The notes under the pieces were generated by a model. The model ran no database searches and was not told the origin of the DNA. It was given only the letters and a program-made list of their open reading frames with translations. Below, in pieces: positions 1-45,232 of a stretch of DNA of 64,000 nucleotides. Numbering within the stretch: position 1 is the first letter of the stretch; each line of letters begins with the position of its first letter. The DNA is from Alphaproteobacteria bacterium. GTDB lineage: Bacteria > Pseudomonadota > Alphaproteobacteria > JAGOMX01. Location: positions 790 through 64,789 of the forward strand of contig JAGOMX010000003.1 of assembly GCA_017993335.1 (NCBI GenBank), given 5' to 3'. Both the position numbers and the translations under genes were made by a program.

Positions 1-240
1 CAAGAAAGAGAGCTTGCCAGAATACATGCGAAGATTTATACAACACAAGAAGCTATGCATATATTGCAGGCAGAGTGGTCGTATCTCAATGAGCCTGGTC
101 GTTTGCAAAAACTGGCCTCTAAACATTTGAAGTTGGCCCCGTCGGATTCGGTGCAGTTGGTTGCGTATAAAAACTTGGATGATTTAACTCGTCCTCACAA
201 GGGAACTGCCTTCGGCGAGCTGCAACCTGTTAAGTATTAA
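1..240 (+). CDS. ftsL: Cell division protein FtsL, C-terminal part; the ORF runs in frame from before the window start
   Basis: The frame is open from nt 1 (QERELARIHAKIYTTQEAMHILQAEWSYLNEPGRLQKLASKHL...). The WxYLNxPxRLxxLAxKHLxL motif is typical of alphaproteobacterial FtsL. It lies immediately upstream of ftsI, as in the dcw cluster. Confidence 0.5.
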   Translation, partial: QERELARIHAKIYTTQEAMHILQAEWSYLNEPGRLQKLASKHLKLAPSDSVQLVAYKNLDDLTRPHKGTAFGELQPVKY

Positions 241-259
241 AAAGTAGGATATTTTAGCC

Positions 260-1972
260 TTGTCGTTTCATCCCAAGGTCCTCAATCTTTTTAAAGTGGG
301 GCCGGAAAATCATAGTATTGTTCGCCAGGCCTTAGACATTGCAAAGACACGTCTGCTGTTGGCGATGGCGGGGATGGTATTGGGTTTTGCTCTGGTGACC
401 ATAAAATTAGTTACGGTTACGTGTTTTCATGGTGGACAAGACTATGCCTCTAACGGAAATCAGCATAATGGCTTAAATATGGGGCGTGCTACCTTTAAGG
501 ATCGTAACGGAGAAGTTTTAGCCACAACGATTGCTACGTCATCCTTGTATGCCAATCCCAAAAAAATATTGAATCCTAAGGAGGTCGTCTCCAAGCTTAA
601 AACTGTTTTCCCTCATCTGAATGAGAAGGATGTGCTGGAAAAATTGAAAAGTGATAAGACTTTCTTGTGGATTGTGCGGCATTTGACGCCGCAGCAAAAA
701 TCCGCGGTCATGCGTTTAGGGCAACCGGGTTTAGAGTTCATGCGGGATACGAAAAGGGTGTATCCTTTTGGTGAATTATTATCCCATGCGGTAGGTTTCG
801 TGGACGTGGACAATACAGGTATATCCGGTCTTGAAAAGGGTATGGATCAGCATCTGCGCAGCACTAACGAGCCTGTGGAGTTGTCTTTAGATATACGACT
901 GCAGCATATTTTATTCGATGAACTGCATAAAACAGTCCATAATTTTTCTGCAGAAGGCGGCAGCACGATGATGATGGATATCGTCACCGGCGAAATTTTA
1001 GCGATGGTTTCTTTGCCTGACTTTGATCCAAATAAACCGGTTATTGAAAACCCACAGGCCTTATTTAATCGTAACACGCTAGGCGTTTATGAAATGGGGT
1101 CTTCCATGAAGATTATCAATACGGCTTTAGCGTTACAATCAGGGATAGCGACCATTGAAACAAAATTTGATGCCACGCAGCCCCTGAAGGTTGGTCGGCA
1201 TTTTGTCACCGACTATCATGCCAAGAATACATGGTTAACGGTGGAAGAAATATTTGTGTACTCTTCGAACATCGGCTCTGCGCGGATGGCTTTAAAGGCG
1301 GGTAGCGATAGGCAGAAAAGTTTTATGAAGGAAATAGGATTCTTGCATTCCCAGAAACTAGAAATTCCTGAATTAGCACAACCGCTCGTGCCAATGACGT
1401 GGAAAGAAGCAAATACCATAACGATTTCCTATGGTTATGGTTTATCCGTTTCGCCGTTACATACATCGGTGGCTATTGCGGGTATTGTGAATGAGGGAAA
1501 AATGGTGGAGCAGCCAACCCTTTTAAAACGTAGCCCACAAGAAACAAAATATAAACAGATTGTGAGTTCCGATGTATCTGCAAAAGTTTTAAACTTAATG
1601 CAACAAAGTGTTATCCGTGGAACGAGCCGTAAGGGTTCTGTGCCGGGTATTATGGTCGGGGGCAAAACTGGAACCGCAAACCAGAGGCGTAGCCATGGGC
1701 GGGGGTATATCGCGAATGCGGTGAATACAACATTTGTTTGTGTTTTCCCAGAAAAACCCAAGTATCTGGTCTTTGTTATGTTGGATGGACCAAAAGCTAA
1801 AAAAGAGACTTTTGGTTTTAATACAGCAGGCTGGAATGCGGCACCTTTAGCCTCGAGCATTATTCAAAGGGCAGCCCCTATTTTAGGTGTGTTTCCTGAA
1901 TTAGAAAAACCGAATGAATCCAGTGGCGCAGCCACTTTGCGTCCCGCAGTATTGAAAGATAAACATGAATAA
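260..1972 (+). CDS. ftsI: Peptidoglycan D,D-transpeptidase FtsI (PBP3)
   Basis: 570 aa with an N-terminal TM helix, a PBP dimerisation domain and a transpeptidase domain (KTGTA motif). First gene of the dcw block before murE. Confidence 0.9.
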   Translation: MSFHPKVLNLFKVGPENHSIVRQALDIAKTRLLLAMAGMVLGFALVTIKLVTVTCFHGGQDYASNGNQHNGLNMGRATFKDRNGEVLATTIATSSLYANPKKILNPKEVVSKLKTVFPHLNEKDVLEKLKSDKTFLWIVRHLTPQQKSAVMRLGQPGLEFMRDTKRVYPFGELLSHAVGFVDVDNTGISGLEKGMDQHLRSTNEPVELSLDIRLQHILFDELHKTVHNFSAEGGSTMMMDIVTGEILAMVSLPDFDPNKPVIENPQALFNRNTLGVYEMGSSMKIINTALALQSGIATIETKFDATQPLKVGRHFVTDYHAKNTWLTVEEIFVYSSNIGSARMALKAGSDRQKSFMKEIGFLHSQKLEIPELAQPLVPMTWKEANTITISYGYGLSVSPLHTSVAIAGIVNEGKMVEQPTLLKRSPQETKYKQIVSSDVSAKVLNLMQQSVIRGTSRKGSVPGIMVGGKTGTANQRRSHGRGYIANAVNTTFVCVFPEKPKYLVFVMLDGPKAKKETFGFNTAGWNAAPLASSIIQRAAPILGVFPELEKPNESSGAATLRPAVLKDKHE

Positions 1973-34066: not shown

Positions 34067-35215
34067 TTACTTATAAACGGATTTATATACTTCCAAGGTA
34101 TGGCTGCACATTTTTGTTTTTGTGTACGTTGCTGTAACAAAGGCTCTAGCCGTTGCGGCGTAGAGATTTGTTTCTTGCGGGGTCAGGCTGAAAACTTCCC
34201 GGATGCAGGTGGCTAAGTCTAGGCTATCTTTATTACGGAATTTCCATCCCGTCTCCTTATGTGTAATTAAGTGACGAGGCTCACCAATGTCAGAGGCGAT
34301 AATGGGCGTGCCCATGGCTTGTGATTCGATGATTACGCGGCCAAACGCTTCGGCTTGTGTTGTGGGGCAGACGACCATATCCGCAAGAGCATAAGCGGTC
34401 GGCATGTCTTGTGTGGCAGGTTGAATCAGAATGCGCTTGTTCAGCTTTAAGTTGTTAATCTTTTCCTGTAGTTCCCCCATATAAGCAGAACGGTTTTCTT
34501 GCCCGCCTAAAAGCACAGCTGTCCATTCAAGATCTTGCAGGTGATATAGGGCGTCAATGAGCACGTGATGGCCCTTTAGCCGAGTCATGCGGGCTGGCAT
34601 TAAAATGATTTTTGCAGGACCGTCAATTCCCCAAGATTTCTTTAAGTGTTGCTTCTCTTTTTCTTGGATATTTTGTGGATCAAAAAAAACTTCATCAATA
34701 CCTCGGGGAATGAGATGCAGCTTTGTCCCGTAAGATTTAAGGGTTTGCGGATAATTTTTAAGGACATACGTCATCATAAAATTAGAAATAATAATCGTGT
34801 CTGTTGTGCGTACCATGATGGAGTTATAAAACCGCTTCAAAAAATTGCGAGCGCTATGGTGGCCATGAAAGGTTGTTATAAACGGAATCCCACATTTTTT
34901 TGCGGCAAAATAAGCAATCCACGCGGGCCAACGAGATCGAGCATGAATAAGGCCAATCTGGTTTTCTTGAATGATTTTGCACAACTGACGAAAAATCCCC
35001 CATGCCTTGAAAATCGATTTATTCTGCAAGGGGAGGGTAATATGTGTGGCACCCTTGTCGCAGGCTTCTTTGGCTTTTGATCCTCCGGAGGAGGCAATAA
35101 AAGAAATGTGGCCTTCTTGTACCAGACTGTGAGAAATAGCCAATGTGCCTTCTTCGACACCACCGGTGCCAAAGGATGGTAAAATTTGTAAAATCCTCAT
35201 TTTAATCATAGTCAT
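34067..35215 (-). CDS. Glycosyltransferase family 4 (GT-B fold)
   Basis: 382 aa with a C-terminal EX7E-type motif (EAFGRVIIESQAMGTPII) and an N-terminal glycine-rich sugar-donor region. Confidence 0.8.
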   Translation of the reverse strand: MTMIKMRILQILPSFGTGGVEEGTLAISHSLVQEGHISFIASSGGSKAKEACDKGATHITLPLQNKSIFKAWGIFRQLCKIIQENQIGLIHARSRWPAWIAYFAAKKCGIPFITTFHGHHSARNFLKRFYNSIMVRTTDTIIISNFMMTYVLKNYPQTLKSYGTKLHLIPRGIDEVFFDPQNIQEKEKQHLKKSWGIDGPAKIILMPARMTRLKGHHVLIDALYHLQDLEWTAVLLGGQENRSAYMGELQEKINNLKLNKRILIQPATQDMPTAYALADMVVCPTTQAEAFGRVIIESQAMGTPIIASDIGEPRHLITHKETGWKFRNKDSLDLATCIREVFSLTPQETNLYAATARAFVTATYTKTKMCSHTLEVYKSVYK

Positions 35216-35272
35216 AACCTTTGTTCAGGTAGAAAATCTTAAAAGCATAGTAACCGTTAAGCCCGAGATATC

Positions 35273-35456
35273 CAGGGCCTACGCATGAAAATTGCACAAA
35301 AACCTGTCACATCTGCGCAAGGAGTGCGGCGCAGCCGCTACAGTATTGATATATTGCAGAGGCTTCGCCTCACATGTTGCGCTGGACACCTGCCTTCGCA
35401 GGTGTGACAGGTGTGGACGTCACTTCCTCTCTTAAATTTTTCATGCGTAGGCCCTG
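35273..35456. mobile_element. MITE-like non-autonomous element, family A (copy A1), with perfect 19-bp TIRs and a 10-bp target-site duplication
   Basis: TIRs are cagggcctacgcatgaaaa ... ttttcatgcgtaggccctg. The element is flanked by the direct repeat ccgagatatc (35263-35272 and 35457-35466). Its internal sequence is shared with the copies at 62156 and 60902. Confidence 0.7.
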
Positions 35457-35530
35457 CCGAGATATCGTTTTGACTCAGGGTGAGCTTGTGATAGTATATA
35501 TAGTATCGATAATTATGATATGCAAAAAAA

Positions 35531-36724
35531 ATGAATGATACGCGTAAATATATATTATTCGGAACGCTAGGCGTTATAGGCTTGCTAACGATTCTTGGGC
35601 TGTGGTGGCGATATGCCGGATCCGGGTCGGGTTCTCCTATGGGGTCAGCAATTGCTGTTGAGATCGAAGAGGTGCGCATGGGCTCTATCGTGCAGCGCAT
35701 TAAGGTTGTGGGCACCTTGCGGGCCGATAACGAGGTTACCATTCATCCGGAAATTGATGGTCGTATCAAAAAAATAAACTTCCAAGAAGGTCAATTGGTG
35801 AATGCTGGCGATCCTTTGGTGGAGATCGAGGATGCTTCTTATCAGGCCAAATCTAAAGAAGCACAAGCCCTGCTGAACTTTGCCAAATTGGAGCTGGATC
35901 GCTATACGCGGTTAACAGATCAAAGCGCGGGTTCCTTAAAAAATAAGGAAAGAGCACAATCGGAGTTATTGCAGGCAGAGGCTCGTTATGCCCAGGCAGC
36001 GTTGCAGCTAGAGCATACAATTATAAAGGCGCCTTTTACCGGTTATGTGGGGCTGAAGCAGTTCAGCGTGGGTGCGCTTATTGATCCACGGATAGAGTTG
36101 CTCACGATCGTAGACGTGGATCCTATAAAGGTTGACTATCGTGTGCCGGCGAAATACTTGCGTTCTTTAAGCAAGGGACAAGAAGTGAAAGTTACGGTAG
36201 ACAGCTTTCCAGATGAAATTTTTCGGGCGCGGATTGATGCCTTGGATCCTAAGGTTGACTCTGCGGCGAACAGTGTTCTCGTGAGGGCCTTAATTCCTAA
36301 TAAAGATGGCCGCTTGAAGCCAGGGTTGTTTGCCCGGGTGGATATGGTTGTGGGGTCTAAGGATGACGCTCTTTTGCTGCCGGAATCCTCTGTGTTGACA
36401 TCCGGGGATGAATCCTCTGTTTATGTGGTTGAGGAGGCAGACACGCCTAATGGTAAAGTATCCTATGCACGAAAAGTTCAAGTGGTTGTCGGCATAAGTG
36501 AATCTGGTATTGTGGAGATCCAAAGAGGTTTAAAAGACAAGGAAAAAGTTATTTCTGTCGGACAAACAAAAGTACAAAACGGATATCCAGTGCGGATTGT
36601 TAATGACATTAATGATGAGAGCGAATTTGACGAAAGCTTAAATAAAATGTCAACGGCAGATAAGGCAGAAAAACCTAAAGAAAATGCTGGTTCATCGTCT
36701 GAAGAAGGCGATAAAAATCAATAA
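35531..36724 (+). CDS. RND efflux periplasmic adaptor (membrane fusion protein, HlyD/AcrA family)
   Basis: 397 aa with an N-terminal TM/signal, a coiled-coil hairpin and a lipoyl/beta-barrel region (PGLFARVDMVVG). Located upstream of the RND pump gene. Confidence 0.85.
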   Translation: MNDTRKYILFGTLGVIGLLTILGLWWRYAGSGSGSPMGSAIAVEIEEVRMGSIVQRIKVVGTLRADNEVTIHPEIDGRIKKINFQEGQLVNAGDPLVEIEDASYQAKSKEAQALLNFAKLELDRYTRLTDQSAGSLKNKERAQSELLQAEARYAQAALQLEHTIIKAPFTGYVGLKQFSVGALIDPRIELLTIVDVDPIKVDYRVPAKYLRSLSKGQEVKVTVDSFPDEIFRARIDALDPKVDSAANSVLVRALIPNKDGRLKPGLFARVDMVVGSKDDALLLPESSVLTSGDESSVYVVEEADTPNGKVSYARKVQVVVGISESGIVEIQRGLKDKEKVISVGQTKVQNGYPVRIVNDINDESEFDESLNKMSTADKAEKPKENAGSSSEEGDKNQ

Positions 36725-36742: not shown

Positions 36743-39700
36743 ATGAAACTTACTGAAATTTGTATTTCTAGGCCGGTCTTATCGACAGTGTTGTCTTTGT
36801 TGCTGGTTGTCGTTGGGTATGTCAGCTATTCGCGGTTGCAGGTTCGTCAATATCCTAAAATTGACTATCCTGTGATGAGTGTGCGTACGTCTTTTGAAGG
36901 CGCCAGTCCGGACATTATTGAATCACAAATTACAAAGCCATTAGAAAATGCTCTGCTGGGTATTAATGGGATTGATACCATTACCTCTGAAAGCGGCAAT
37001 GGCGAAAGTAAGATTTCTATTGTTTTTAAAGTTAATCGTGACATTGAGGATGCGGCAAACGATGTGCGGGATAAAGTAAACCGTGCAAGGGCCAGTTTTC
37101 CCAGTGATGTAGCAAACTCGGAAATACGTAAGTCCGATGCGGATGCCGTACCGATGATGAACTTGGTTCTTTATGCGGATAACGATAAGGTGAACGTCAA
37201 TCAAATGAATGACTATGCCAAAAATGTCTTGGAGAACCAGATCCAAGTCGTCCCTGGTGTGGCGGCGGTGGACAGATGGGGGGGTGGCGAATTTAAAATG
37301 TATATTCGCCTAGATCCTTTGAAATTGGCTAACTTAAAGATATCTCCGGAAGATGTGGCGCGAGCCTTAAAGGATCAAACCTTTGAAAGACCTGCGGGTT
37401 ATTTAACGACGGACGATAAACAAATTACGGTGACGACAAAGGCGGCTTTGCGGACGGAGGAAGAGTTTAGCAATGTGGTCATTGAAGAGCGAGATGGCTA
37501 CTTAATTCGTATCAGTGATGTGGCTTCAGAAGTTAAATTTGACGCGGTAGAAAACCAGTTTTATGTGCGTTACAATGGCAAGGATGCGGTTACGATGGCT
37601 GTAACCCGCCAATCGACAGCCAATGACCTGGAAATATCTCAGGCTATCTATAAATTATTACCCAAGTTACAACGGGAAATGCCATCCGGGATGCTGTTGG
37701 ATGTGGCGAGTGATAACTCTATCTTTATTGAAAGATCTGTAGATGAGGTTTATGAAACCATCGTTATTGCCTTTATCCTTGTATTGCTAGTGATCCTGGT
37801 GTTTTTGCGTTCGGTGCGTGGTGCGGTGATTGTCTTGCTGCCTATACCGCTATCGTTGATTGGGGCTTGCGCCATTATATATGTGTTCGGATTTAGTATT
37901 AACATTCTGACTCTTTTAGCGATGGTTATGGCCATTGGCCTGGTGGTGGATGACGCCATTGTCGTTTTGGAAAACATCTATCGATACATAGAAGACGGCA
38001 TGGAGCCTATGGCGGCGGCCTATAAAGGATCCAAAGAAATTGCTTCAGCCGTTGTTGCCATGACGATTACGTTGGCAGCGGTGTATTTGCCCATTGCTAT
38101 GTCGCCGGGTGAAACGGGAAAAACCTTTACAGAATTTGCCGTAACGTTAGCTGGGGCTGTATTGATATCGGGTTTCGTGGCCTTGACTCTGTCGCCGATG
38201 ATGTGTTCGCGGTTTTTGAAAAAGCATGCGGAAATAAAAGAATTAAAATTCATCGAGAATTTTTTAAATCGAGTGGACGAGCGGTACGTGAGTTCCTTGA
38301 AAAAAACATCTAGAATTACCATCCTTTTGTGTGGTTTTGGTATTGCGGCGTTTGGTGCTGTCGTGGGCATTAACATGAAACAAGATGCCTCCACCCCCGA
38401 AGACCAAGGTACGATTAAGGCTACGGCGTTTCCGCCTAAAGGTGCCAGTTTAGCTTATATCAGCAAGTATATGACACAAGCTGAAAAAATAATCATGGAT
38501 GATGAAGAATGGCCAGGCCGCAAGGCATTTGTAAAGGATCTCTTGCCAATCTTGGAGTCTATCAACAAGTATGTGACACAAGCTGAAAAAATAATTAAGA
38601 AAGAGGGCGAATGGAAGGGTAGCGAGCCATTTGCAACGAATTTTCTGTCGATCTTCGTTGGTGTCAATAAGCATGTGGCCGTTGCCGAAACAATAATAGA
38701 GGACATGAAAAAAGGAAATGGCGGACAGCAGTCTGTCGCCGATCTCTCGTCGAATTTAGTTTTTATCAATAAGTATATGACATTAGCTGAAAAGATGATC
38801 AAGGAAGAGGAAGCAAAAAATGGGGCCAAGCCATCTCTAGCCGATCTCTTATCGGCCTTTGTTTCGATCAACAAGTATGTAGCGCAGGCTGGAAAAATAA
38901 TTACAGACGAGCAGAAAGAGCATGATGGCAAACGATCTGTAACCAAGCTATTATCCATAATTCAAACTCGTGGTGATACTTCGTTTAGAGGTGTTTTGTT
39001 GCCATGGGAGGAAAGATCTCGTTCCTCTATGAAAATTGCGGAAGCTTTGCAACCCAGATTAAAGGATATTACAGGGTTATCGTTAAATTTAAGGGGATTT
39101 GGTCGTTCCTTTGGCGGTGGATCAAAAGATAAACCCGTGAGTCTCGTCATTCAGTCTAATAAGTCATATGAAGATTTAATATCCGTTTTTGCGCAGTTTG
39201 CCTCGAACTTATCCAAGATGCCGGGTATAGCTGAGCGTAGCGTGGAGCAGACGAACTTATCCGAAGAACAAGAATATGCGATTAGAATTGATCGAGAAAA
39301 AGCTGCCTCTTTAAATGTGGATGTTATTCGCGTCGGTGAGACATTAGATACTCTGATCAGTGGGCGTCCTGTGACCTTCTTTAAATCCGATAGTATTCGT
39401 TATCCTGTAACCGTAGAGCTGGATCAGCAATATAGAAAAACACGGGAAGATATATCGGCCTTATACATCCGTAGTGTGCGCAACAACAAGGCGACGATGG
39501 TTCCTTTGACGGAGATCGTTTCCGTAGAGCGCCAGTTAGTGCCGCCATTAATTGCGCACGTGGGCGGTTTGCGTGCTTTAAGTATCTGGGCGGATGTGGA
39601 GTCGGGCTATGGTTTGGGTGACGTGTTGAACCGAGCGCAGGAAATGGCGTTTAACACATTACCAGAAGGTTCCCGTATGGAGTTTGTGGGCGGAAGTAAA

Positions 39701-40294
39701 AGCTTTTTAGAAGAAAGCGCAAACCTGATCTGGATTTTTGTCTTCGCGATCGTATTCATCTATTTGGTCTTGTCCGCACAGTATGAAAGCTTTATTGATC
39801 CGTTAATTATTATGATCAGCGTGCCTTTGTCATTGGTGGGTGGTATTCTGTTCTTGCTGGTGTTTGGTGGATCTTTCCAGTCCTCCGTATTGTTTATCGA
39901 AACAACAGGTACATTAACGATATTTGCAAAAATTGGTTTAGTGACCTTGATAGGTTTGATCACCAAGCATGGTATTCTGATTGTGGAATTTGCAAACGCG
40001 AAAGTTGCAGAAGGTAAAGACAGAATTTCCGCCGTTGTAGAAGCCGCCGGCGTTCGATTGCGCCCCATATTGATGACAACCTTTGCTATGGTATTAGGGG
40101 CTGTCCCCCTCGTTCTGGCCGATGGCGCCGGCAGCGAATCCCGCCGGCAAATTGGATCGGTTATCGTGGGTGGCATGTCTTTGGGAACGATCTTTACCCT
40201 ATACGTCGTCCCAGCCGTATATGTATATGTGACGACGGAAAACATAAAATACGTGCTGACGCTACAATTCTTGCGCAAAATGAAAGTGGCTTAA
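36743..40294 (+). CDS. RND-family efflux pump (AcrB/HAE1-like) carrying a ~190-aa tandem-repeat insertion in periplasmic loop 2
   Basis: 1183 aa, i.e. ~140 aa longer than canonical AcrB. It has 12 TM segments in two 6-TM bundles and the PEDQG motif after TM7. Five ~39-aa repeats are then inserted (L..x..INKYVxQAEKII...G....L) before the conserved sequence resumes. Confidence 0.9.
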   Translation: MKLTEICISRPVLSTVLSLLLVVVGYVSYSRLQVRQYPKIDYPVMSVRTSFEGASPDIIESQITKPLENALLGINGIDTITSESGNGESKISIVFKVNRDIEDAANDVRDKVNRARASFPSDVANSEIRKSDADAVPMMNLVLYADNDKVNVNQMNDYAKNVLENQIQVVPGVAAVDRWGGGEFKMYIRLDPLKLANLKISPEDVARALKDQTFERPAGYLTTDDKQITVTTKAALRTEEEFSNVVIEERDGYLIRISDVASEVKFDAVENQFYVRYNGKDAVTMAVTRQSTANDLEISQAIYKLLPKLQREMPSGMLLDVASDNSIFIERSVDEVYETIVIAFILVLLVILVFLRSVRGAVIVLLPIPLSLIGACAIIYVFGFSINILTLLAMVMAIGLVVDDAIVVLENIYRYIEDGMEPMAAAYKGSKEIASAVVAMTITLAAVYLPIAMSPGETGKTFTEFAVTLAGAVLISGFVALTLSPMMCSRFLKKHAEIKELKFIENFLNRVDERYVSSLKKTSRITILLCGFGIAAFGAVVGINMKQDASTPEDQGTIKATAFPPKGASLAYISKYMTQAEKIIMDDEEWPGRKAFVKDLLPILESINKYVTQAEKIIKKEGEWKGSEPFATNFLSIFVGVNKHVAVAETIIEDMKKGNGGQQSVADLSSNLVFINKYMTLAEKMIKEEEAKNGAKPSLADLLSAFVSINKYVAQAGKIITDEQKEHDGKRSVTKLLSIIQTRGDTSFRGVLLPWEERSRSSMKIAEALQPRLKDITGLSLNLRGFGRSFGGGSKDKPVSLVIQSNKSYEDLISVFAQFASNLSKMPGIAERSVEQTNLSEEQEYAIRIDREKAASLNVDVIRVGETLDTLISGRPVTFFKSDSIRYPVTVELDQQYRKTREDISALYIRSVRNNKATMVPLTEIVSVERQLVPPLIAHVGGLRALSIWADVESGYGLGDVLNRAQEMAFNTLPEGSRMEFVGGSKSFLEESANLIWIFVFAIVFIYLVLSAQYESFIDPLIIMISVPLSLVGGILFLLVFGGSFQSSVLFIETTGTLTIFAKIGLVTLIGLITKHGILIVEFANAKVAEGKDRISAVVEAAGVRLRPILMTTFAMVLGAVPLVLADGAGSESRRQIGSVIVGGMSLGTIFTLYVVPAVYVYVTTENIKYVLTLQFLRKMKVA
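38440..38960 (+). repeat. Intragenic tandem repeat (~117-nt unit x ~5) within the RND pump gene
   Basis: Repeated nucleotide blocks ...atcaacaagtatgtgacacaagctgaaaaaataat... encode the INKY..AEKII protein repeat. Confidence 0.7.
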
Positions 40295-40320: not shown

Positions 40321-40528
40321 TAGACTAAGTATGCAGCCCCGTCATCCTGATCGAAGCTCAGCGTTAGCTGAGTGAGAGAAGGATCCAGGCACACAAGTGC
40401 CACTTTAGTGGCTCTATATAGTCTATAAAGAGTCGCTTTCGCGACGCTCTTGCGCCTGGATTCTTCGCTAACTCCGCTGGCGCGGAGCCGCACTCAGAAT
40501 GACGGGAGGGGGTAATGATACTTATTTA
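40321..40528. mobile_element. MITE-like element, family B (copy B1)
   Basis: TIRs are ccccgtcatcctga ... tcagaatgacggg. Its two arms are reverse complements of the arms of the copy at 51731-51932 (opposite orientation), and it has flanking atgatacttattta-type sequence. Confidence 0.6.
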
Positions 40529-40562
40529 GGATAAATAGTTCTATTTTACGTGACGTTCCGTT

Positions 40563-41678
40563 CTACCCGCCAATCTCCACCAGCTCATAGGCGGTGCTTC
40601 GGCCGCCGGCTGTGCCTTTTTTTAGGATATTTTTTTCGATGAGGTCTTGGATATCGCGGGAGGCAGAGTCTTGTGAGCATTTGCACATTTTTGCCCATTT
40701 GGTTGAGGTAAGGCTGCCGTATAGTTTTTCGTCTAGAAGGTGATTCAACATAAACCTTTGGCGCTCGTTCAGGTGCATCTTATTTAAGGTATTCCAATAG
40801 TGTGTCTTATGAAAAACCCGATTGAGGCTGTCATTTGCGGTTTGGACGGCGCGTAATAAACAGTTGAGGTACCACTCTAACCAATAGGTTATATCCATAT
40901 GGGTATTTTTTTGTGTATGTTCTAGATGTTGGTAATAGTCTTCCCGTTCCTTTTGAATTTGTGCCGATAAGCTATAAAATCGTTTAGACGTATTTTCTGA
41001 ACGTGCCAACAGTAAGTCGCATAAAGCCCTGCCTATGCGGCCATTGCCATCATCGAAGGGGTGAATGGTTTCAAACCATATATGAGCAATCCCTGCCTTT
41101 AGAACTAAATCTATGTTTTGATCTTCATTGTACCAATCCATAAAACGTTGCATTTCTTGTGGAACAATTTCTGGTGACGGAGCCTGAAAATGGATGCGTT
41201 CTTTGCCCATGCGACCAGAAACGATTTGCATAACGCCTTTGCGCCAATCGGCTATGGTGATTTTGTTGAAACCACTGCGGCCTCCTGGAAATAAAAGGCT
41301 ATGCCAGGCGAATAGCCGATCTGGGGTTAAGGGGTGTTGGTAGTTCGTGGTTGCGTCCAGGACCATCTCGACAACACCATCTACGTCCCGGGGTGAGGAT
41401 ATAAGACCCGCTGTGTCTAACCCTAAATGCCTGGCAACGGAAGATCGCACTTGCTCATAGTTGAGGTGTTCACCTTCAATTTCGCTGGATTTTATAACAT
41501 CATTTGTATAGGTCAACAACATGGTTTCGCGTCGTAAGTCAAAGCCAGTCGCCTCCATGCGTCCGCCTAGCATGCCTTGTTGATAACGAAACTGTGCGAG
41601 CAAATTACCAATACGGGCGCTATCCCAAATAAACTGAGGCCATTGGGGGAGTTGATGTATGTAGGTCACGTGATCCAT
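40563..41678 (-). CDS. Fic-family protein (class II, with N-terminal inhibitory helix)
   Basis: 371 aa. The core Fic motif is HPFDDGNGRIGRAL. An upstream SSEIEG sequence fits the [ST]xxxE[GN] inhibitory motif. The C-terminus has a winged-helix-like domain. Confidence 0.85.
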   Translation of the reverse strand: MDHVTYIHQLPQWPQFIWDSARIGNLLAQFRYQQGMLGGRMEATGFDLRRETMLLTYTNDVIKSSEIEGEHLNYEQVRSSVARHLGLDTAGLISSPRDVDGVVEMVLDATTNYQHPLTPDRLFAWHSLLFPGGRSGFNKITIADWRKGVMQIVSGRMGKERIHFQAPSPEIVPQEMQRFMDWYNEDQNIDLVLKAGIAHIWFETIHPFDDGNGRIGRALCDLLLARSENTSKRFYSLSAQIQKEREDYYQHLEHTQKNTHMDITYWLEWYLNCLLRAVQTANDSLNRVFHKTHYWNTLNKMHLNERQRFMLNHLLDEKLYGSLTSTKWAKMCKCSQDSASRDIQDLIEKNILKKGTAGGRSTAYELVEIGG

Positions 41679-41730: not shown

Positions 41731-41868
41731 TGCGGAGTTTGCTAGCATAATCACCGCATTCTTTGCGGATATTGTGCCGAGTATTCTCCGCATTCTTTAT
41801 AAAATTGCGGAGAATAGGGGGTGTAATATACGCAAAGAATGCGGAGAATGTCTGGGTTATTCTCCGCA
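41731..41868. promoter_or_regulatory. Array of ≥6 copies, in both orientations, of a 10-bp motif ATTCTCCGCA / TGCGGAGAAT (with a variant CCGCATTCTTTGCGG) in the fic / SBP divergent promoter region
   Basis: Read directly. Motif copies at 41731, 41755-41769, 41783-41798, 41806-41815, 41831-41850 and 41859-41868 form nested inverted repeats. Confidence 0.35.
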
Positions 41869-41939
41869 GGCTAAATTTTTTTACGTGATGTCCGAATAGG
41901 AAAAACTTGTCATTCCAGTCTGAAGGCGGTAGTGTTATC

Positions 41940-42731
41940 ATGACTTTAAAAAAGGAAAATATGATGTTAAATAAAGTATTTTGCACGCTTTTTCTCGTCC
42001 CCTTGTTGTTGGTTGGATGTGGTGAAGAAAAAAAAGAAAACGCCGGTTCTAAACCTAAACTCTCGATGGTGACATCTGCGGATTACCCGCCTTTTGAATT
42101 TTTTATAACGGAAGGCTCCAGTGCTAAAATAGCTGGCTTAGACATGGATATTGCCCATCGTGTTGCCGAATACTTGGGCTATGAAATAGAAACGAAGGAT
42201 GTGGATTTTACAACTGTGATTCCTTTGGTGCAATCCGGGCAGGCAGATTTTGCGATGGCGGGCATAACGCCGACACAGGACCGTGAGAAAGATCTTTCCT
42301 TCAGCCAGCCTTATTACTTTATGAACAATGTGATGATCCATCGTATCGACAACGATTTTATTCGGCGAGGCGATTACAAAGGCGTACGCATTATTGTGCA
42401 ATTGGGATCGTTGCATGAGCAATATGCCAAGATATGGCAGCAACAAAACCCGGGCTCGACGGTTTTAACGTTAAATAAGTTAGGTGATGCGGTGCAAGAA
42501 CTTCTTGCGGGCAGGGCAGATGGCATTATTTGTGATGAAACGCCATCTAAGTCCTATATAAGCAAATATAGTCAGGAACTGACCATGCAAAATTTAGAAG
42601 GGGAAAGCTTTGGGCTTGCCATTGCTTTTAAGAAGGGCTCTCCCTTGGTGATCGATTTTAATCGAGCTTTGGATCATCTAAATGAGATTGGAGCGTTGGA
42701 CGAAATTATCAATAAATGGCTAGCGCAGTAG
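41940..42731 (+). CDS. Amino-acid ABC-transporter-type periplasmic substrate-binding lipoprotein (SBP family 3)
   Basis: Signal peptide plus lipobox (LLLVGCGEE). The SBP_bac_3 pattern is present (SADYPPFEF...GLDMDIAHRVAEYLG...GITPTQDRE). I trimmed the start to the first ATG (MTLKK); the ORF-track start is a TTG. Confidence 0.75.
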   Translation: MTLKKENMMLNKVFCTLFLVPLLLVGCGEEKKENAGSKPKLSMVTSADYPPFEFFITEGSSAKIAGLDMDIAHRVAEYLGYEIETKDVDFTTVIPLVQSGQADFAMAGITPTQDREKDLSFSQPYYFMNNVMIHRIDNDFIRRGDYKGVRIIVQLGSLHEQYAKIWQQQNPGSTVLTLNKLGDAVQELLAGRADGIICDETPSKSYISKYSQELTMQNLEGESFGLAIAFKKGSPLVIDFNRALDHLNEIGALDEIINKWLAQ

Positions 42732-43628: not shown

Positions 43629-44822
43629 ATGTCATCGACGTATGTACAATATTTAGAAGATGAGTTGGTTGTATTAAAAGAATCTGGTCTTTTTAAGGCA
43701 GAAAAAACAATTTCCTCCCAACAATCCTCGCACATCGAGGTGCTTGGTGCGCGACATGAGGAAATTATTAACCTGTGTGCGAATAATTATTTAGGCTTGG
43801 CGAATCATCGTGAAATTATAGATGCCGCCCATGAATCCCTAGAAGACTTCGGTCATGGCATGGCATCGGTTCGCTTTATTTGTGGTACGCAGCTACCCCA
43901 TAAAAGATTAGAAGAGCGCCTGAGTCAGTTTTTGCAGAAAGAGGATACGATCGTATATTCTTCGTGTTACAGTGCGACGTTGGGATTGTTTCAGGCTTTA
44001 ATGGGCCCGGAGGATGCAATTATAAGTGATGCCTTAAATCATGCCTGTTTAATTGATGGCATACGGTTAAGCAAAGCTGAAAAACATGTGTATGTGCACG
44101 GGGATATGGCGGATTTGGAGGCCAAGCTTCAGCAAACTCAAGGCGCTCGTTTTCGTTTGATCGCTACGGACGGCGTTTTTTCTATGGATGGTTATGTGGC
44201 TAAATTACCTGAGATTTGCGATTTGGCTGAAAAATATAACGCTTTAGTTATGGTGGATGACTCACACGGGGTCGGAGTTTTGGGTGAAAAAGGCGCAGGA
44301 AGCCCAGATTTTATGGGAGTTGCGGATCGTGTGGACATTTTAACGGGTACATTGGGAAAAGCTTTGGGTGGTTCTGCTGGTGGCTATGTGGCGGGTCAGC
44401 GCCCTGTGATTGAATGGTTGCGACAAAAATCGAGGACGTATTTATTTTCCAATTCATTGCCCCCAGTTTTATGCGCAGGCTCGATCAAAGCCATAGATTT
44501 GGTTGAGCAAAGCGATACCTTGTTGAAGACTTTACAAGAAAATTCCCAGTATTTCCGCCGGGAAATGGAAGCTTTAGGGTTTCAGTTGTTGCCAGGAGCG
44601 CACCCTATTATCCCCATTATGTTAGGGGATGCGAAGCAGGCACAACTTATGGCGGCGCAGCTATACGAAGAAGGTATTTATGTGGTTGGTTTTTCCTATC
44701 CGGTTGTCCCCATGGGCCAGGCCCGCATCCGTGTTCAGATTAGCGCTGCACACACTCGCCAAGACCTAGAAAAGGCAATTTTCGCTTTTGCCTGTGTGGG
44801 GCGTCGTTTAGGGATTATATAA
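43629..44822 (+). CDS. kbl: 2-amino-3-ketobutyrate CoA ligase (glycine C-acetyltransferase)
   Basis: 397 aa. It aligns along its whole length with E. coli Kbl (CANNYLGLANH, SVRFICGTQ, ATDGVFSMDG, ITGTLGKALGG, YLFSNSLPP, QARIRVQISAAHT). Confidence 0.9.
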   Translation: MSSTYVQYLEDELVVLKESGLFKAEKTISSQQSSHIEVLGARHEEIINLCANNYLGLANHREIIDAAHESLEDFGHGMASVRFICGTQLPHKRLEERLSQFLQKEDTIVYSSCYSATLGLFQALMGPEDAIISDALNHACLIDGIRLSKAEKHVYVHGDMADLEAKLQQTQGARFRLIATDGVFSMDGYVAKLPEICDLAEKYNALVMVDDSHGVGVLGEKGAGSPDFMGVADRVDILTGTLGKALGGSAGGYVAGQRPVIEWLRQKSRTYLFSNSLPPVLCAGSIKAIDLVEQSDTLLKTLQENSQYFRREMEALGFQLLPGAHPIIPIMLGDAKQAQLMAAQLYEEGIYVVGFSYPVVPMGQARIRVQISAAHTRQDLEKAIFAFACVGRRLGII

Positions 44823-44966
44823 TGAGGCCATTTCAAAACGTCTTTTTTGGGTGATTTCGTCGTCAATGTTCCGCTTCCGGTGCTCACGTACGAAGAGGTA
44901 CGCTGCGCTCCGGTTCTCACCTTTCCTATAAATTCCTCCAAAAAAGCCAATTTTGAAATGGCCTCA
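44823..44966. mobile_element. MITE-like element, family C (copy C1), abutting the kbl stop codon
   Basis: TIRs are tgaggccatttcaaaacg ... (c)agttttgaaatggcctca. It is >90% identical to the copy at 50231-50375. Confidence 0.65.
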
Positions 44967-45232
44967 TAATTTAAATCCCGTTAACTATTTATTAAATTCA
45001 TATATGTAGAATTTCCAGGTGCTAGATAGCCTCGTACGTTCAGCACAAAAGCTCGCGGAGTTTATAGTAAGACTATTTAACGCGTGCAAGGATTGTTCCA
45101 TATGGGCTCTCCTATAAATGAGAGGTGTATATTGACCTCTCATTTATTTTGATCAGATATTTTACCCTCATTTATCAAAAACATCGGATTTGCATCTGGT
45201 CAGTTGGCCTTTATCTTGCTTTAATAGAGGCG

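Follow-up and report, generated by a model that had tools for sequence, protein, structure and literature searches.

Insertion sequences (ISs) of the ISAs1 family are entered in the ISfinder family table with CAGGG ends and with direct repeats (DRs) of 8-10 bp. A member of this family, ISArsp11, carries a 19-bp inverted repeat (IR), CAGGGCTGATGCAAAGTCG, which starts with CAGGGCT, and has a 10-bp DR (PMC6305408, Table 3). Among the described bacterial MITEs, QMITE2 of Coxiella burnetii displays TIRs of 23-29 bp, mostly 7-9-bp DRs and a GTAG REP that is the target of IS1111; its origin was left undetermined by the authors (Wachter et al. 2018, PMC5896051). QMITE1 measures 300-400 bp, has 2-4-bp DRs and encodes DUF1658 peptides (PMC5896051). 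An ISAs1-derived MITE is not mentioned in the review PMC10969869 (full-text search for 'ISAs1'), nor is one described in the full texts that were searched for ISAs1 together with MITE terms.

The 64-kb window analysed here, i.e. the whole stretch of DNA under consideration, has a G+C content of ~44%, and exact-sequence protein matches on its contig are MBP6985103, MBP6985122, MBP6985124 and MBP6985127. It contains three dispersed copies of a repeat, designated family A, which are smaller than 500 bp, lack a transposase gene, and possess TIRs as well as target-site duplications (TSDs) of fixed length and variable sequence (Table 1). These are non-coding MITEs, mobile DNA of an ordinary kind carried by an uncultured alphaproteobacterium, and it is very probably an ISAs1-family transposase of the DDE type that has mobilised these non-autonomous elements in trans.

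Table 1. Coordinates of family A elements, their parts and surroundings in the window, and loci from other genomes and metagenomes (L numbers) that carry the same type of end.
Feature	Position or source	Strand	Length	Ends or sequence	Remarks
MITE copy 1	35273..35456	+	184 bp		short L-type left arm; diverged core
Copy 1 TIRs	35273-35291 / 35438-35456		19 bp		both perfect
Copy 1 left TSD	35263..35272			CCGAGATATC	direct sequence reading
Copy 1 right TSD	35457..35466			CCGAGATATC	direct sequence reading
MITE copy 2	60902..61126	-	225 bp		both TIRs decayed
Copy 2 left TSD	60892..60901			GCGGTAGAGG	loop and 3' arm of rplS terminator hairpin
Copy 2 right TSD	61127..61136			GCGGTAGAGG	followed by TGATTTTTT, the remaining terminator 3' arm and U-tract
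5' half of split bidirectional terminator	60875..60889	+		AAAATCACCTTTACC	
MITE copy 3	62156..62383	+	228 bp		
Copy 3 TIRs	62156-62174 / 62365-62383				both perfect
Copy 3 left TSD	62146..62155			AACTTCAGAC	direct sequence reading
Copy 3 right TSD	62384..62393			AACTTCAGAC	direct sequence reading
Copy 3 core	62227..62308	+			68/79 (86%) identical to copy 2 core, ~60977-61054
Inner hairpin module	60950..60976	+	27 nt	GTCATACCTGCGCAGGCAGGTATCCAG	8-bp stem, 4-nt loop
Module partners and equivalents	61055-61081; 62200-62226; 62309-62335; 35382-35408	-; +; -; -			
Solo TIR	53066..53084	-		CAGGACTTACGCATGAAAA	2 mismatches
Family B repeats	40338-40539; 51716-51945; 55551-55674				ends unlike family A
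GT4 gene	34067-35209	-			start at 35209; Pfam Glyco_transf_4 and Glycos_transf_1
RND efflux-adaptor gene	start at 35531	+			
rplS	60401-60850				Ribosomal_L19
ORF convergent with rplS	61191-61499				
Cytidylyltransferase-like gene	start at 62051	-			
Hypothetical gene	start at 62556	+			
IS, L109	genome contig, 103-1893		1791 bp	TAGGGCCTACGCATGAAAA / CAGGGCC...	TSD none
IS, L124	metagenome		1193 bp	left perfect, right 1 mismatch	TSD none
IS, L125	metagenome		1200 bp	CAGGGCAACCGCATGAAAA	TSD CATTTTAAAG, 10 bp
IS, L138	via transposase homologues		1189 bp	TAGGGCC... / CAGGGCC...	TSD none
IS, L139/L140	via transposase homologues		1196 bp	CAGGGCCTACGCATGAAAA, perfect at both ends	TSD CCCCTGTCAA, 10 bp
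IS, L142/L143	two complete MAG chromosomes		1188 bp	CAGGGCTTACGCATGAAAA	TSD GGTATTTTAG, 10 bp
MITE, L030	Legionellales		164 bp		TSD 10
MITE, L053	Legionella londiniensis		168 bp		TSD 9/10 matching; related end at L018
MITE, L025	Legionellaceae, Legionellales		176 bp		TSD 10
MITE, L055	Prosthecobacter		241 bp		TSD 9
MITE, L064	Bacillota		287 bp		TSD 9
MITE, L071			357 bp		TSD 9
MITE, L090	Verrucomicrobiaceae		362 bp		TSD 9

The TIR common to family A, CAGGGCCTACGCATGAAAA (19 bp; 19-20 bp by some counts), occurs six times in the window when up to 3 mismatches are allowed, against 0.01 expected from shuffled sequence. The first-pass annotation had delimited the three elements exactly as they are read directly from the sequence, and had credited all of them with perfect 19-bp TIRs; this is correct for copies 1 and 3, whereas the left TIR of copy 2 (CAATACCTACGTATGAAAA) has 4 mismatches and its right TIR (AAGAGCTTACGCATGAAAA) has 3. 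The 10-bp TSDs that it reported are perfect (10/10) in all three copies, differ in sequence from copy to copy and are located exactly at the element boundaries; by our own arithmetic, chance would produce a perfect 10-mer at a given position with a probability of ~1e-6, and one is seen here three times. The solo TIR, previously placed at 53054-53073, is found a few positions further on, on the minus strand. Because the adjacent sequence resembles neither family A arm, this TIR is the remnant of a different element with the same end type; a second TIR was looked for over 4 kb of upstream sequence, with as many as 6 mismatches allowed, and none was detected. Searches with nhmmer, using each copy as query, gave no additional copies in the window, six-frame peptides of the elements matched no Pfam family (E of 1 or below), and no matches to Rfam were obtained at gathering or permissive thresholds. 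A full-text literature search with the TIR string returned unrelated chance matches only.

Co-oriented by their arms, the elements are composed of a TIR, an L arm, a 27-nt hairpin module, a core, the inverted module, an R arm and a second TIR, the L arm of copy 3 being AGACACAGAACAGTCACGAGTA and its R arm ...TGTGGACGTCACTTCCTCTCTTAAAT. The hairpin module (consensus GTCAYnCCTGCGnAGGCAGGnRTCCAG) occurs five times in the window, always inside family A, with none expected in shuffled sequence, and its pairing is kept by compensated changes (ATACCTGC/GCAGGTAT versus ACACCTGC/GCAGGTGT). Each whole element forms one long palindrome with two asymmetric arms. The nested internal inverted repeats described earlier are real (35 nt, 89%; 31 nt, 84%), and all three copies are predicted to fold into long hairpins, far more stable than shuffled sequence (z -9.4 to -9.6; energies of -95.6, -97.3 and -109.5 kcal/mol).

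Copies 2 and 3 have a core of ~80 nt; that of copy 1 measures 47 nt. Copies 1 and 3 agree in their right arms at 45/45 positions, and the arms of copy 2 are reversed relative to both. Since the cores of copies 2 and 3 match in the same genomic orientation (68/79, z 46) while their arms match solely in the opposite orientation (33/39 and 25/26), one of these two copies carries its core flipped with respect to the arms; the simplest cause would be a template switch, or recombination, at the inner inverted repeats. The core hairpins of copy 1 are palindromic and fit either orientation. A portion of the family A core is similar to another family of palindromic repeats in the window, family B. A 20-nt match to the arm of copy 1 at 56527-56546 falls within the opening codons of a gene, lacks a TIR and was taken as chance.

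The 17-mer GGRCYTACGCATGAAAA, scanned over 185,579 species genomes, was found at no fewer than 113 loci; since ~280 chance 17-mer matches are expected in 596 Gb (own arithmetic), raw match counts mean little. Among the matches listed, the CA extension was present in 65/114 versus 1/16 expected, and the matches are therefore non-random; many of them are situated at contig ends. The full-length ISs that carry such ends are listed in Table 1. The 381-aa transposase of the IS on the genome contig (L109) comprises the Pfam domains DDE_Tnp_1_assoc and DDE_Tnp_1. With the NCBIfam model NF033564 (transpos_ISAs1, 'ISAs1 family transposase'), the cutoff of which is 70, this protein reaches 341.6 bits, and transposase fragments that abut the same TIR in L010, L026, L029, L033, L074 and L081 are all ISAs1-type. 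In L124, the TAG stop codon of the transposase lies inside the right IR (...KKIFHA*; read by eye). L109 also bears a passenger gene, 23S_rRNA_IVP. The transposase clade is large, with thousands of homologues, many of them on stand-alone contigs of ~1.19 kb; L139/L140, L142/L143 and L124 represent the ~1.19-kb clade. ISAs1, IS1358 and the H-repeat element ISEc1 also belong to the ISAs1 family.

The end of family A is identical to that of L139/L140 over 19/19 positions and shows 1 mismatch to those of L142/L143, L124 and L109; family A, L125, L139/L140 and L142/L143 are alike in TSD length (10 bp). The first-pass annotation had reasoned that a 10-bp TSD points to a specific transposase with its gene elsewhere and had proposed a search for an IS with matching TIRs, and both ideas were borne out by ISAs1-family ISs that share the 19-bp TIR and the 10-bp TSDs, found in other genomes. 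The following observations count against the ISAs1 reading: L109, L124 and L138 are full-length and carry this TIR, and yet have no TSD; no ISAs1 transposase is encoded in the 64-kb window, where tblastn with such a protein gave no credible match; and the family A arms are unlike the ends of the sampled ISs beyond ~23 nt. Because of this last difference, family A is not a simple internal-deletion derivative of the ISs that were recovered.

According to the proposed mechanism, an ISAs1-family transposase would recognise the 19-bp TIR CAGGGCYTACGCATGAAAA at both ends of the element, excise or copy it, and integrate it at cuts staggered by 10 bp, upon which gap repair of the staggered cuts would generate the 10-bp TSD. 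Mobilisation would thus take place in trans, the cognate transposase is presumably present in this genome or was so formerly, and neighbouring genes may be affected. With their perfect TIRs and TSDs, copies 1 and 3 look transposition-competent. For a MAG repeat that had been uncharacterised, this supplies a definite mechanism together with a family of partner enzymes.

The same ends delimit other MITEs elsewhere (Table 1), including elements with an ISAs1-type TIR in Coxiellaceae (L042 and L102). Like family A, these have the 19-bp end, TSDs of 9-10 bp, sizes between 148 and 362 bp and palindromic interiors; unlike family A, their interiors show no detectable similarity to it. As the interiors are unrelated, MITEs have arisen repeatedly on the same IS ends, and the elements represent independent births rather than one MITE family. 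A nearly invariant 19-bp ISAs1-type end has accordingly spawned unrelated MITEs in Legionellales, in Holosporales/Rickettsiales-like alphaproteobacteria, in Verrucomicrobiota and in others. Cyanobacterial matches (YAGGACTTACGC..., 5-bp TSD) were set aside as a different MITE family, and matches in Dyella, Rhodanobacter and Frateuria, which share one flank (CGCCACCATGAA), probably correspond to one conserved locus and not to elements.

The gene context of the copies differs from what had been annotated. Because the GT4 gene is encoded on the minus strand, copy 1 is located upstream of its start, at a distance of 64 nt, and not after the gene as had been stated; it also lies 75 nt upstream of the divergent RND efflux-adaptor gene on the plus strand. 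Copy 3 is likewise inserted between divergent starts, those of the cytidylyltransferase-like and the hypothetical gene, and a position at a gene 3' end, earlier attributed to the copies in general, holds for copy 2 alone, which sits after rplS, between this gene and a convergent ORF. Consensus scans revealed neither a promoter-like site inside any element nor an intrinsic-terminator-like site formed by a whole element; within the elements, terminator-like sites were confined to stem-loops of 5 bp in the copy 2 and copy 3 cores.

When copy 2 and one TSD are removed in silico, AAAATCACCTTTACC-TCGC-GGTAGAGGTGATTTTTT is restored, and this rplS site is a textbook bidirectional intrinsic terminator between convergent genes (-20.4 kcal/mol). 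At this site the element did not supply a terminator; copy 2 landed in a pre-existing rplS terminator hairpin. No comparable hairpin was obtained for the reconstructed pre-insertion sites of copies 1 and 3. In the MFE fold of 60868-61146, the stretch 60875-60889 pairs with 61129-61143 around the MITE hairpin (-122.3 kcal/mol, z -11.4), and the re-formed outer stem ends directly before the U-tract, so that the rplS terminator may survive the insertion as a branched stem.

Copy 2 is present at the same site in all metagenome contigs that are 96-100% identical to the window. Being common to these strains, it is an old insertion, which decays independently in each lineage: in the ~96% lineage (four samples) its left TIR has become CAAGCTCTACGCATGAAAA and the entire core is lost, with CTGTCATACCTGC-CTTC-GCAGGTATGACAG as the remainder. 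Copy 3 is present in lineages that are 96-98% identical (L134, L135). Its left flank differs in L135, a 97.7% identical strain (...TTCAAAGAGA joined to AGGGCC), which would mean that there is a further copy, that the region was rearranged or that the assembly is chimeric here. The related-strain contigs, identified via exact-protein look-ups of flanking genes, all include the copy or terminate within it, and none has an empty site; given this, and the retention of copies 2 and 3 in the 96-98% lineages, there is no sign of recent mobility. Four contigs of the same-strain sample SRR11088487 end inside elements. The family A elements therefore break short-read assemblies of this organism, and they mark strain lineages. 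The family-specific arm CCTCTCTTAAATTTTTCATRCGTAGG gave 0 matches in a JGI metagenome scan. Viral contigs yielded one uninformative match, at a contig end.

The functional suggestion of the first-pass annotation amounts to an alternative in which host selection maintains the elements at their sites as RNA or DNA structures (sRNA genes, terminators or hairpins that stabilise RNA), their transposition being of no present-day relevance. The very stable hairpins of all copies (-96 to -110 kcal/mol, z about -9.5), whose 27-nt inner hairpin is kept paired by compensated changes, would suit such a role, as would the retention of copies 2 and 3 in strains 96-98% identical and the placement of copy 2 between rplS and the convergent ORF, where the old stem re-forms before the U-tract in the MFE fold. 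However, two of the three copies lie in divergent 5' regions and not at 3' ends, the elements themselves have no trailing U-tract and none was recognised as a terminator in the scan, and the terminator at copy 2 is older than the insertion. The absence of Rfam matches, the coreless copy 2 of the ~96% lineage and the lineage-specific decay of its TIRs, which looks like neutral decay, point in the same direction, and we consider a structural role as the reason for these elements quite unlikely. Another reading, which we would put forward as speculation with a low chance of being right, is that family A is a modular chimera, in which ISAs1-type ends and arms surround an invertible palindromic core cassette exchanged with or captured from family B, MITE interiors of this lineage being shuffled from one family to another through recombination at shared hairpin modules (...ATCCAG / CTGGAT...). 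If this were true, insertion into a terminator loop with a TSD could leave termination intact, and the elements could be tolerated, or even used, as terminator add-ons.

Two further explanations concern the mode of spread. The missing partner in the window, and the arms that differ from sampled ISAs1 ISs past the TIR, could also be accommodated if a transposase of another family that makes ~10-bp duplications (e.g. IS4- or IS1634-like) mobilised the MITE and the ISAs1 match were coincidental. Such a coincidence is highly improbable, as the full 19-20-nt end is identical to that of several independent ISAs1-family ISs which make 10-bp TSDs, the chance of a 19-mer identity is negligible, and every transposase fragment next to this TIR is of ISAs1 type. 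Alternatively, the interior of short GC-rich hairpin modules (GTCAY...ATCCAG) and the likeness of part of the core to family B might be taken to indicate REP/BIME-like extragenic palindromes, whose spread would depend on recombination or on a RAYT (Y1) transposase and not on cut-and-paste movement of TIR elements. REPs are not known to make TSDs, and this class is recognised by the lack of both TIRs and TSDs and by its association with a RAYT; family A, however, has TIRs and TSDs, the 10-bp duplications being perfect in all three copies and directly adjoining the TIRs, its ends equal IS ends, and no RAYT-like gene was noticed among the window ORFs read, which leaves this explanation with a practically negligible probability. 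Mobilisation in trans by an ISAs1-family transposase is thus retained as the preferred reading.

Compared with known systems, family A shares with the ISAs1-family ISs the ends beginning 5'-CAGGG, the 19-bp IRs and the 10-bp direct repeats; unlike these ISs, which encode a transposase, its 184-228 bp elements are non-autonomous passengers. Correia/CREE, RUP, ERIC, Nezha and MITEAba12 are similar in architecture and in their predicted hairpin RNAs, and as for classical bacterial MITEs in general, insertion near genes makes promoter or terminator effects possible; the parent ISs of these MITEs belong to other families than that of family A, and their ends and TSD lengths are different (PMC10969869). 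QMITE1 was discarded because it differs in size and in DR length and because translations of family A gave no Pfam match to DUF1658 (E of 1 or below). Similar to family A, QMITE2 is small (150-190 bp), with TIRs and unique DRs of variable sequence, gives long hairpin transcripts (predicted folds in the case of family A), and is intergenic with strain-conserved insertion sites; its truncated REP-like 'small' versions are comparable with the core-deleted copy 2 of the ~96% lineage. By published description, the two differ in TIR length (23-29 versus 19-20 bp) and DR length (7-9 versus 10 bp), and the host of QMITE2 is a gammaproteobacterium whereas that of family A is an alphaproteobacterium. 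As the host is not Coxiella and the published features differ in this comparison by description, family A was identified with neither QMITE1 nor QMITE2. An ISAs1-type TIR was found in Coxiellaceae MAGs and in a Coxiella tick endosymbiont (L042, L054, L087, L102), and a link between QMITE2 and ISAs1-type ends may therefore exist. Nothing in these results alters the knowledge of how MITEs work; judged from its sequence, family A appears to be a canonical MITE, the partner family of which can now be named as ISAs1.

The three palindromic repeats of family B, a second repeat family in the window, display arms that are 89% complementary between copies over 142 nt, as determined by repeat analysis of the window, and copy B2 is a palindrome in its own right with 58-nt arms. 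Approximately 40 nt of the family B core (ATCCAGGCGCAAGAGTGCCGCGCAGGCGGCTCCTTAT) can be aligned to the cores of the ISAs1-type MITEs (family A). For the best pairs the alignment score was matched in 0 of 200 shuffles (z of approximately 6), and for the weaker pairs in 1 to 4 of 200. This alignment hints that core modules are common to repeat families with different termini.

Repeats and motif cluster in the window
Feature	Coordinates	Structure	Associated genes
Family B palindromic repeat	40338-40539	ends of type CCCGTCATYCTGA...	
Family B palindromic repeat	51716-51945	ends of type CCCGTCATYCTGA...	
Family B palindromic repeat	55551-55674	ends of type CCCGTCATYCTGA...	
Third repeat family	44815-44975	157 nt	43629-44822
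Third repeat family	50227-50383	157 nt	48902-50233
TGCGGAGAAT-type motif cluster	41751-41868	inverted and direct copies (47-nt arms, 3-nt spacer)	40563-41678 (minus strand); 41907-42731 (plus strand)
Tandem repeats	38458-38865	102 nt (34 aa) each, diverged (...INKYVTQAEKII...)	ORF 36743-40294
Tandem repeats	52424-52951	at least six of 66 nt (22 aa), 87% matching	ORF 52070-52963

The orthologues of window 60902-60972 in strains approximately 96% identical, from four independent samples (L116, L119, L120 and L122), carry the family A MITE downstream of rplS (copy 2) with its core deleted, along with half the inner repeat, such that only a tight hairpin remains, and the edges of this deletion display an ACCTGC/ACTTGC microhomology. 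The L135 contig (97.7% identity; L135 1-400 versus window 62051-62160) contains copy 3 together with the right TSD; the left flank consists of unrelated sequence in which the TSD match is absent. Either two copies have rearranged with each other, or this is an additional copy, or the assembly is chimeric at this repeat.

The two copies of the third repeat family share 94% identity, each contains 37-nt inverted arms (GGCCATTTCAAAA...TTTTGAAATGGCC), and each starts at a gene's stop codon. The TGCGGAGAAT-type motif cluster, which is located in the region between two divergent genes, may constitute an operator array. Tandem repeats were also found inside two genes. One encodes an unusually long RND transporter (AcrB-like, PF00873) of 1183 aa, in which the 34-aa repeats are placed between two ACR_tran matches; in the other, the translated 22-aa repeats (LSDCTQITNAGLAHLS...) look like leucine-rich repeats, and the solo ISAs1-type TIR lies approximately 100 nt downstream of this ORF.

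Outside the window, the full-length ISAs1-family IS of L109, a gammaproteobacterial MAG locus, measures 1791 bp versus the usual approximately 1190 bp, and carries inside it (L109 235-633) a passenger gene whose product is a 23S rRNA-intervening-sequence (four-helix-bundle) protein. Ends similar to the ISAs1-type TIR (YAGGACTTACGC...) were also found on cyanobacterial MITEs of 103-197 bp in Calothrix, Nostoc, Anabaena and Leptolyngbyaceae (loci L004, L007, L013, L015, L020, L021, L035, L036, L038, L045, L066, L086, L092, L099 and L108); most of these copies display 5-bp duplications, and they represent a family separate from the ISAs1-type elements.
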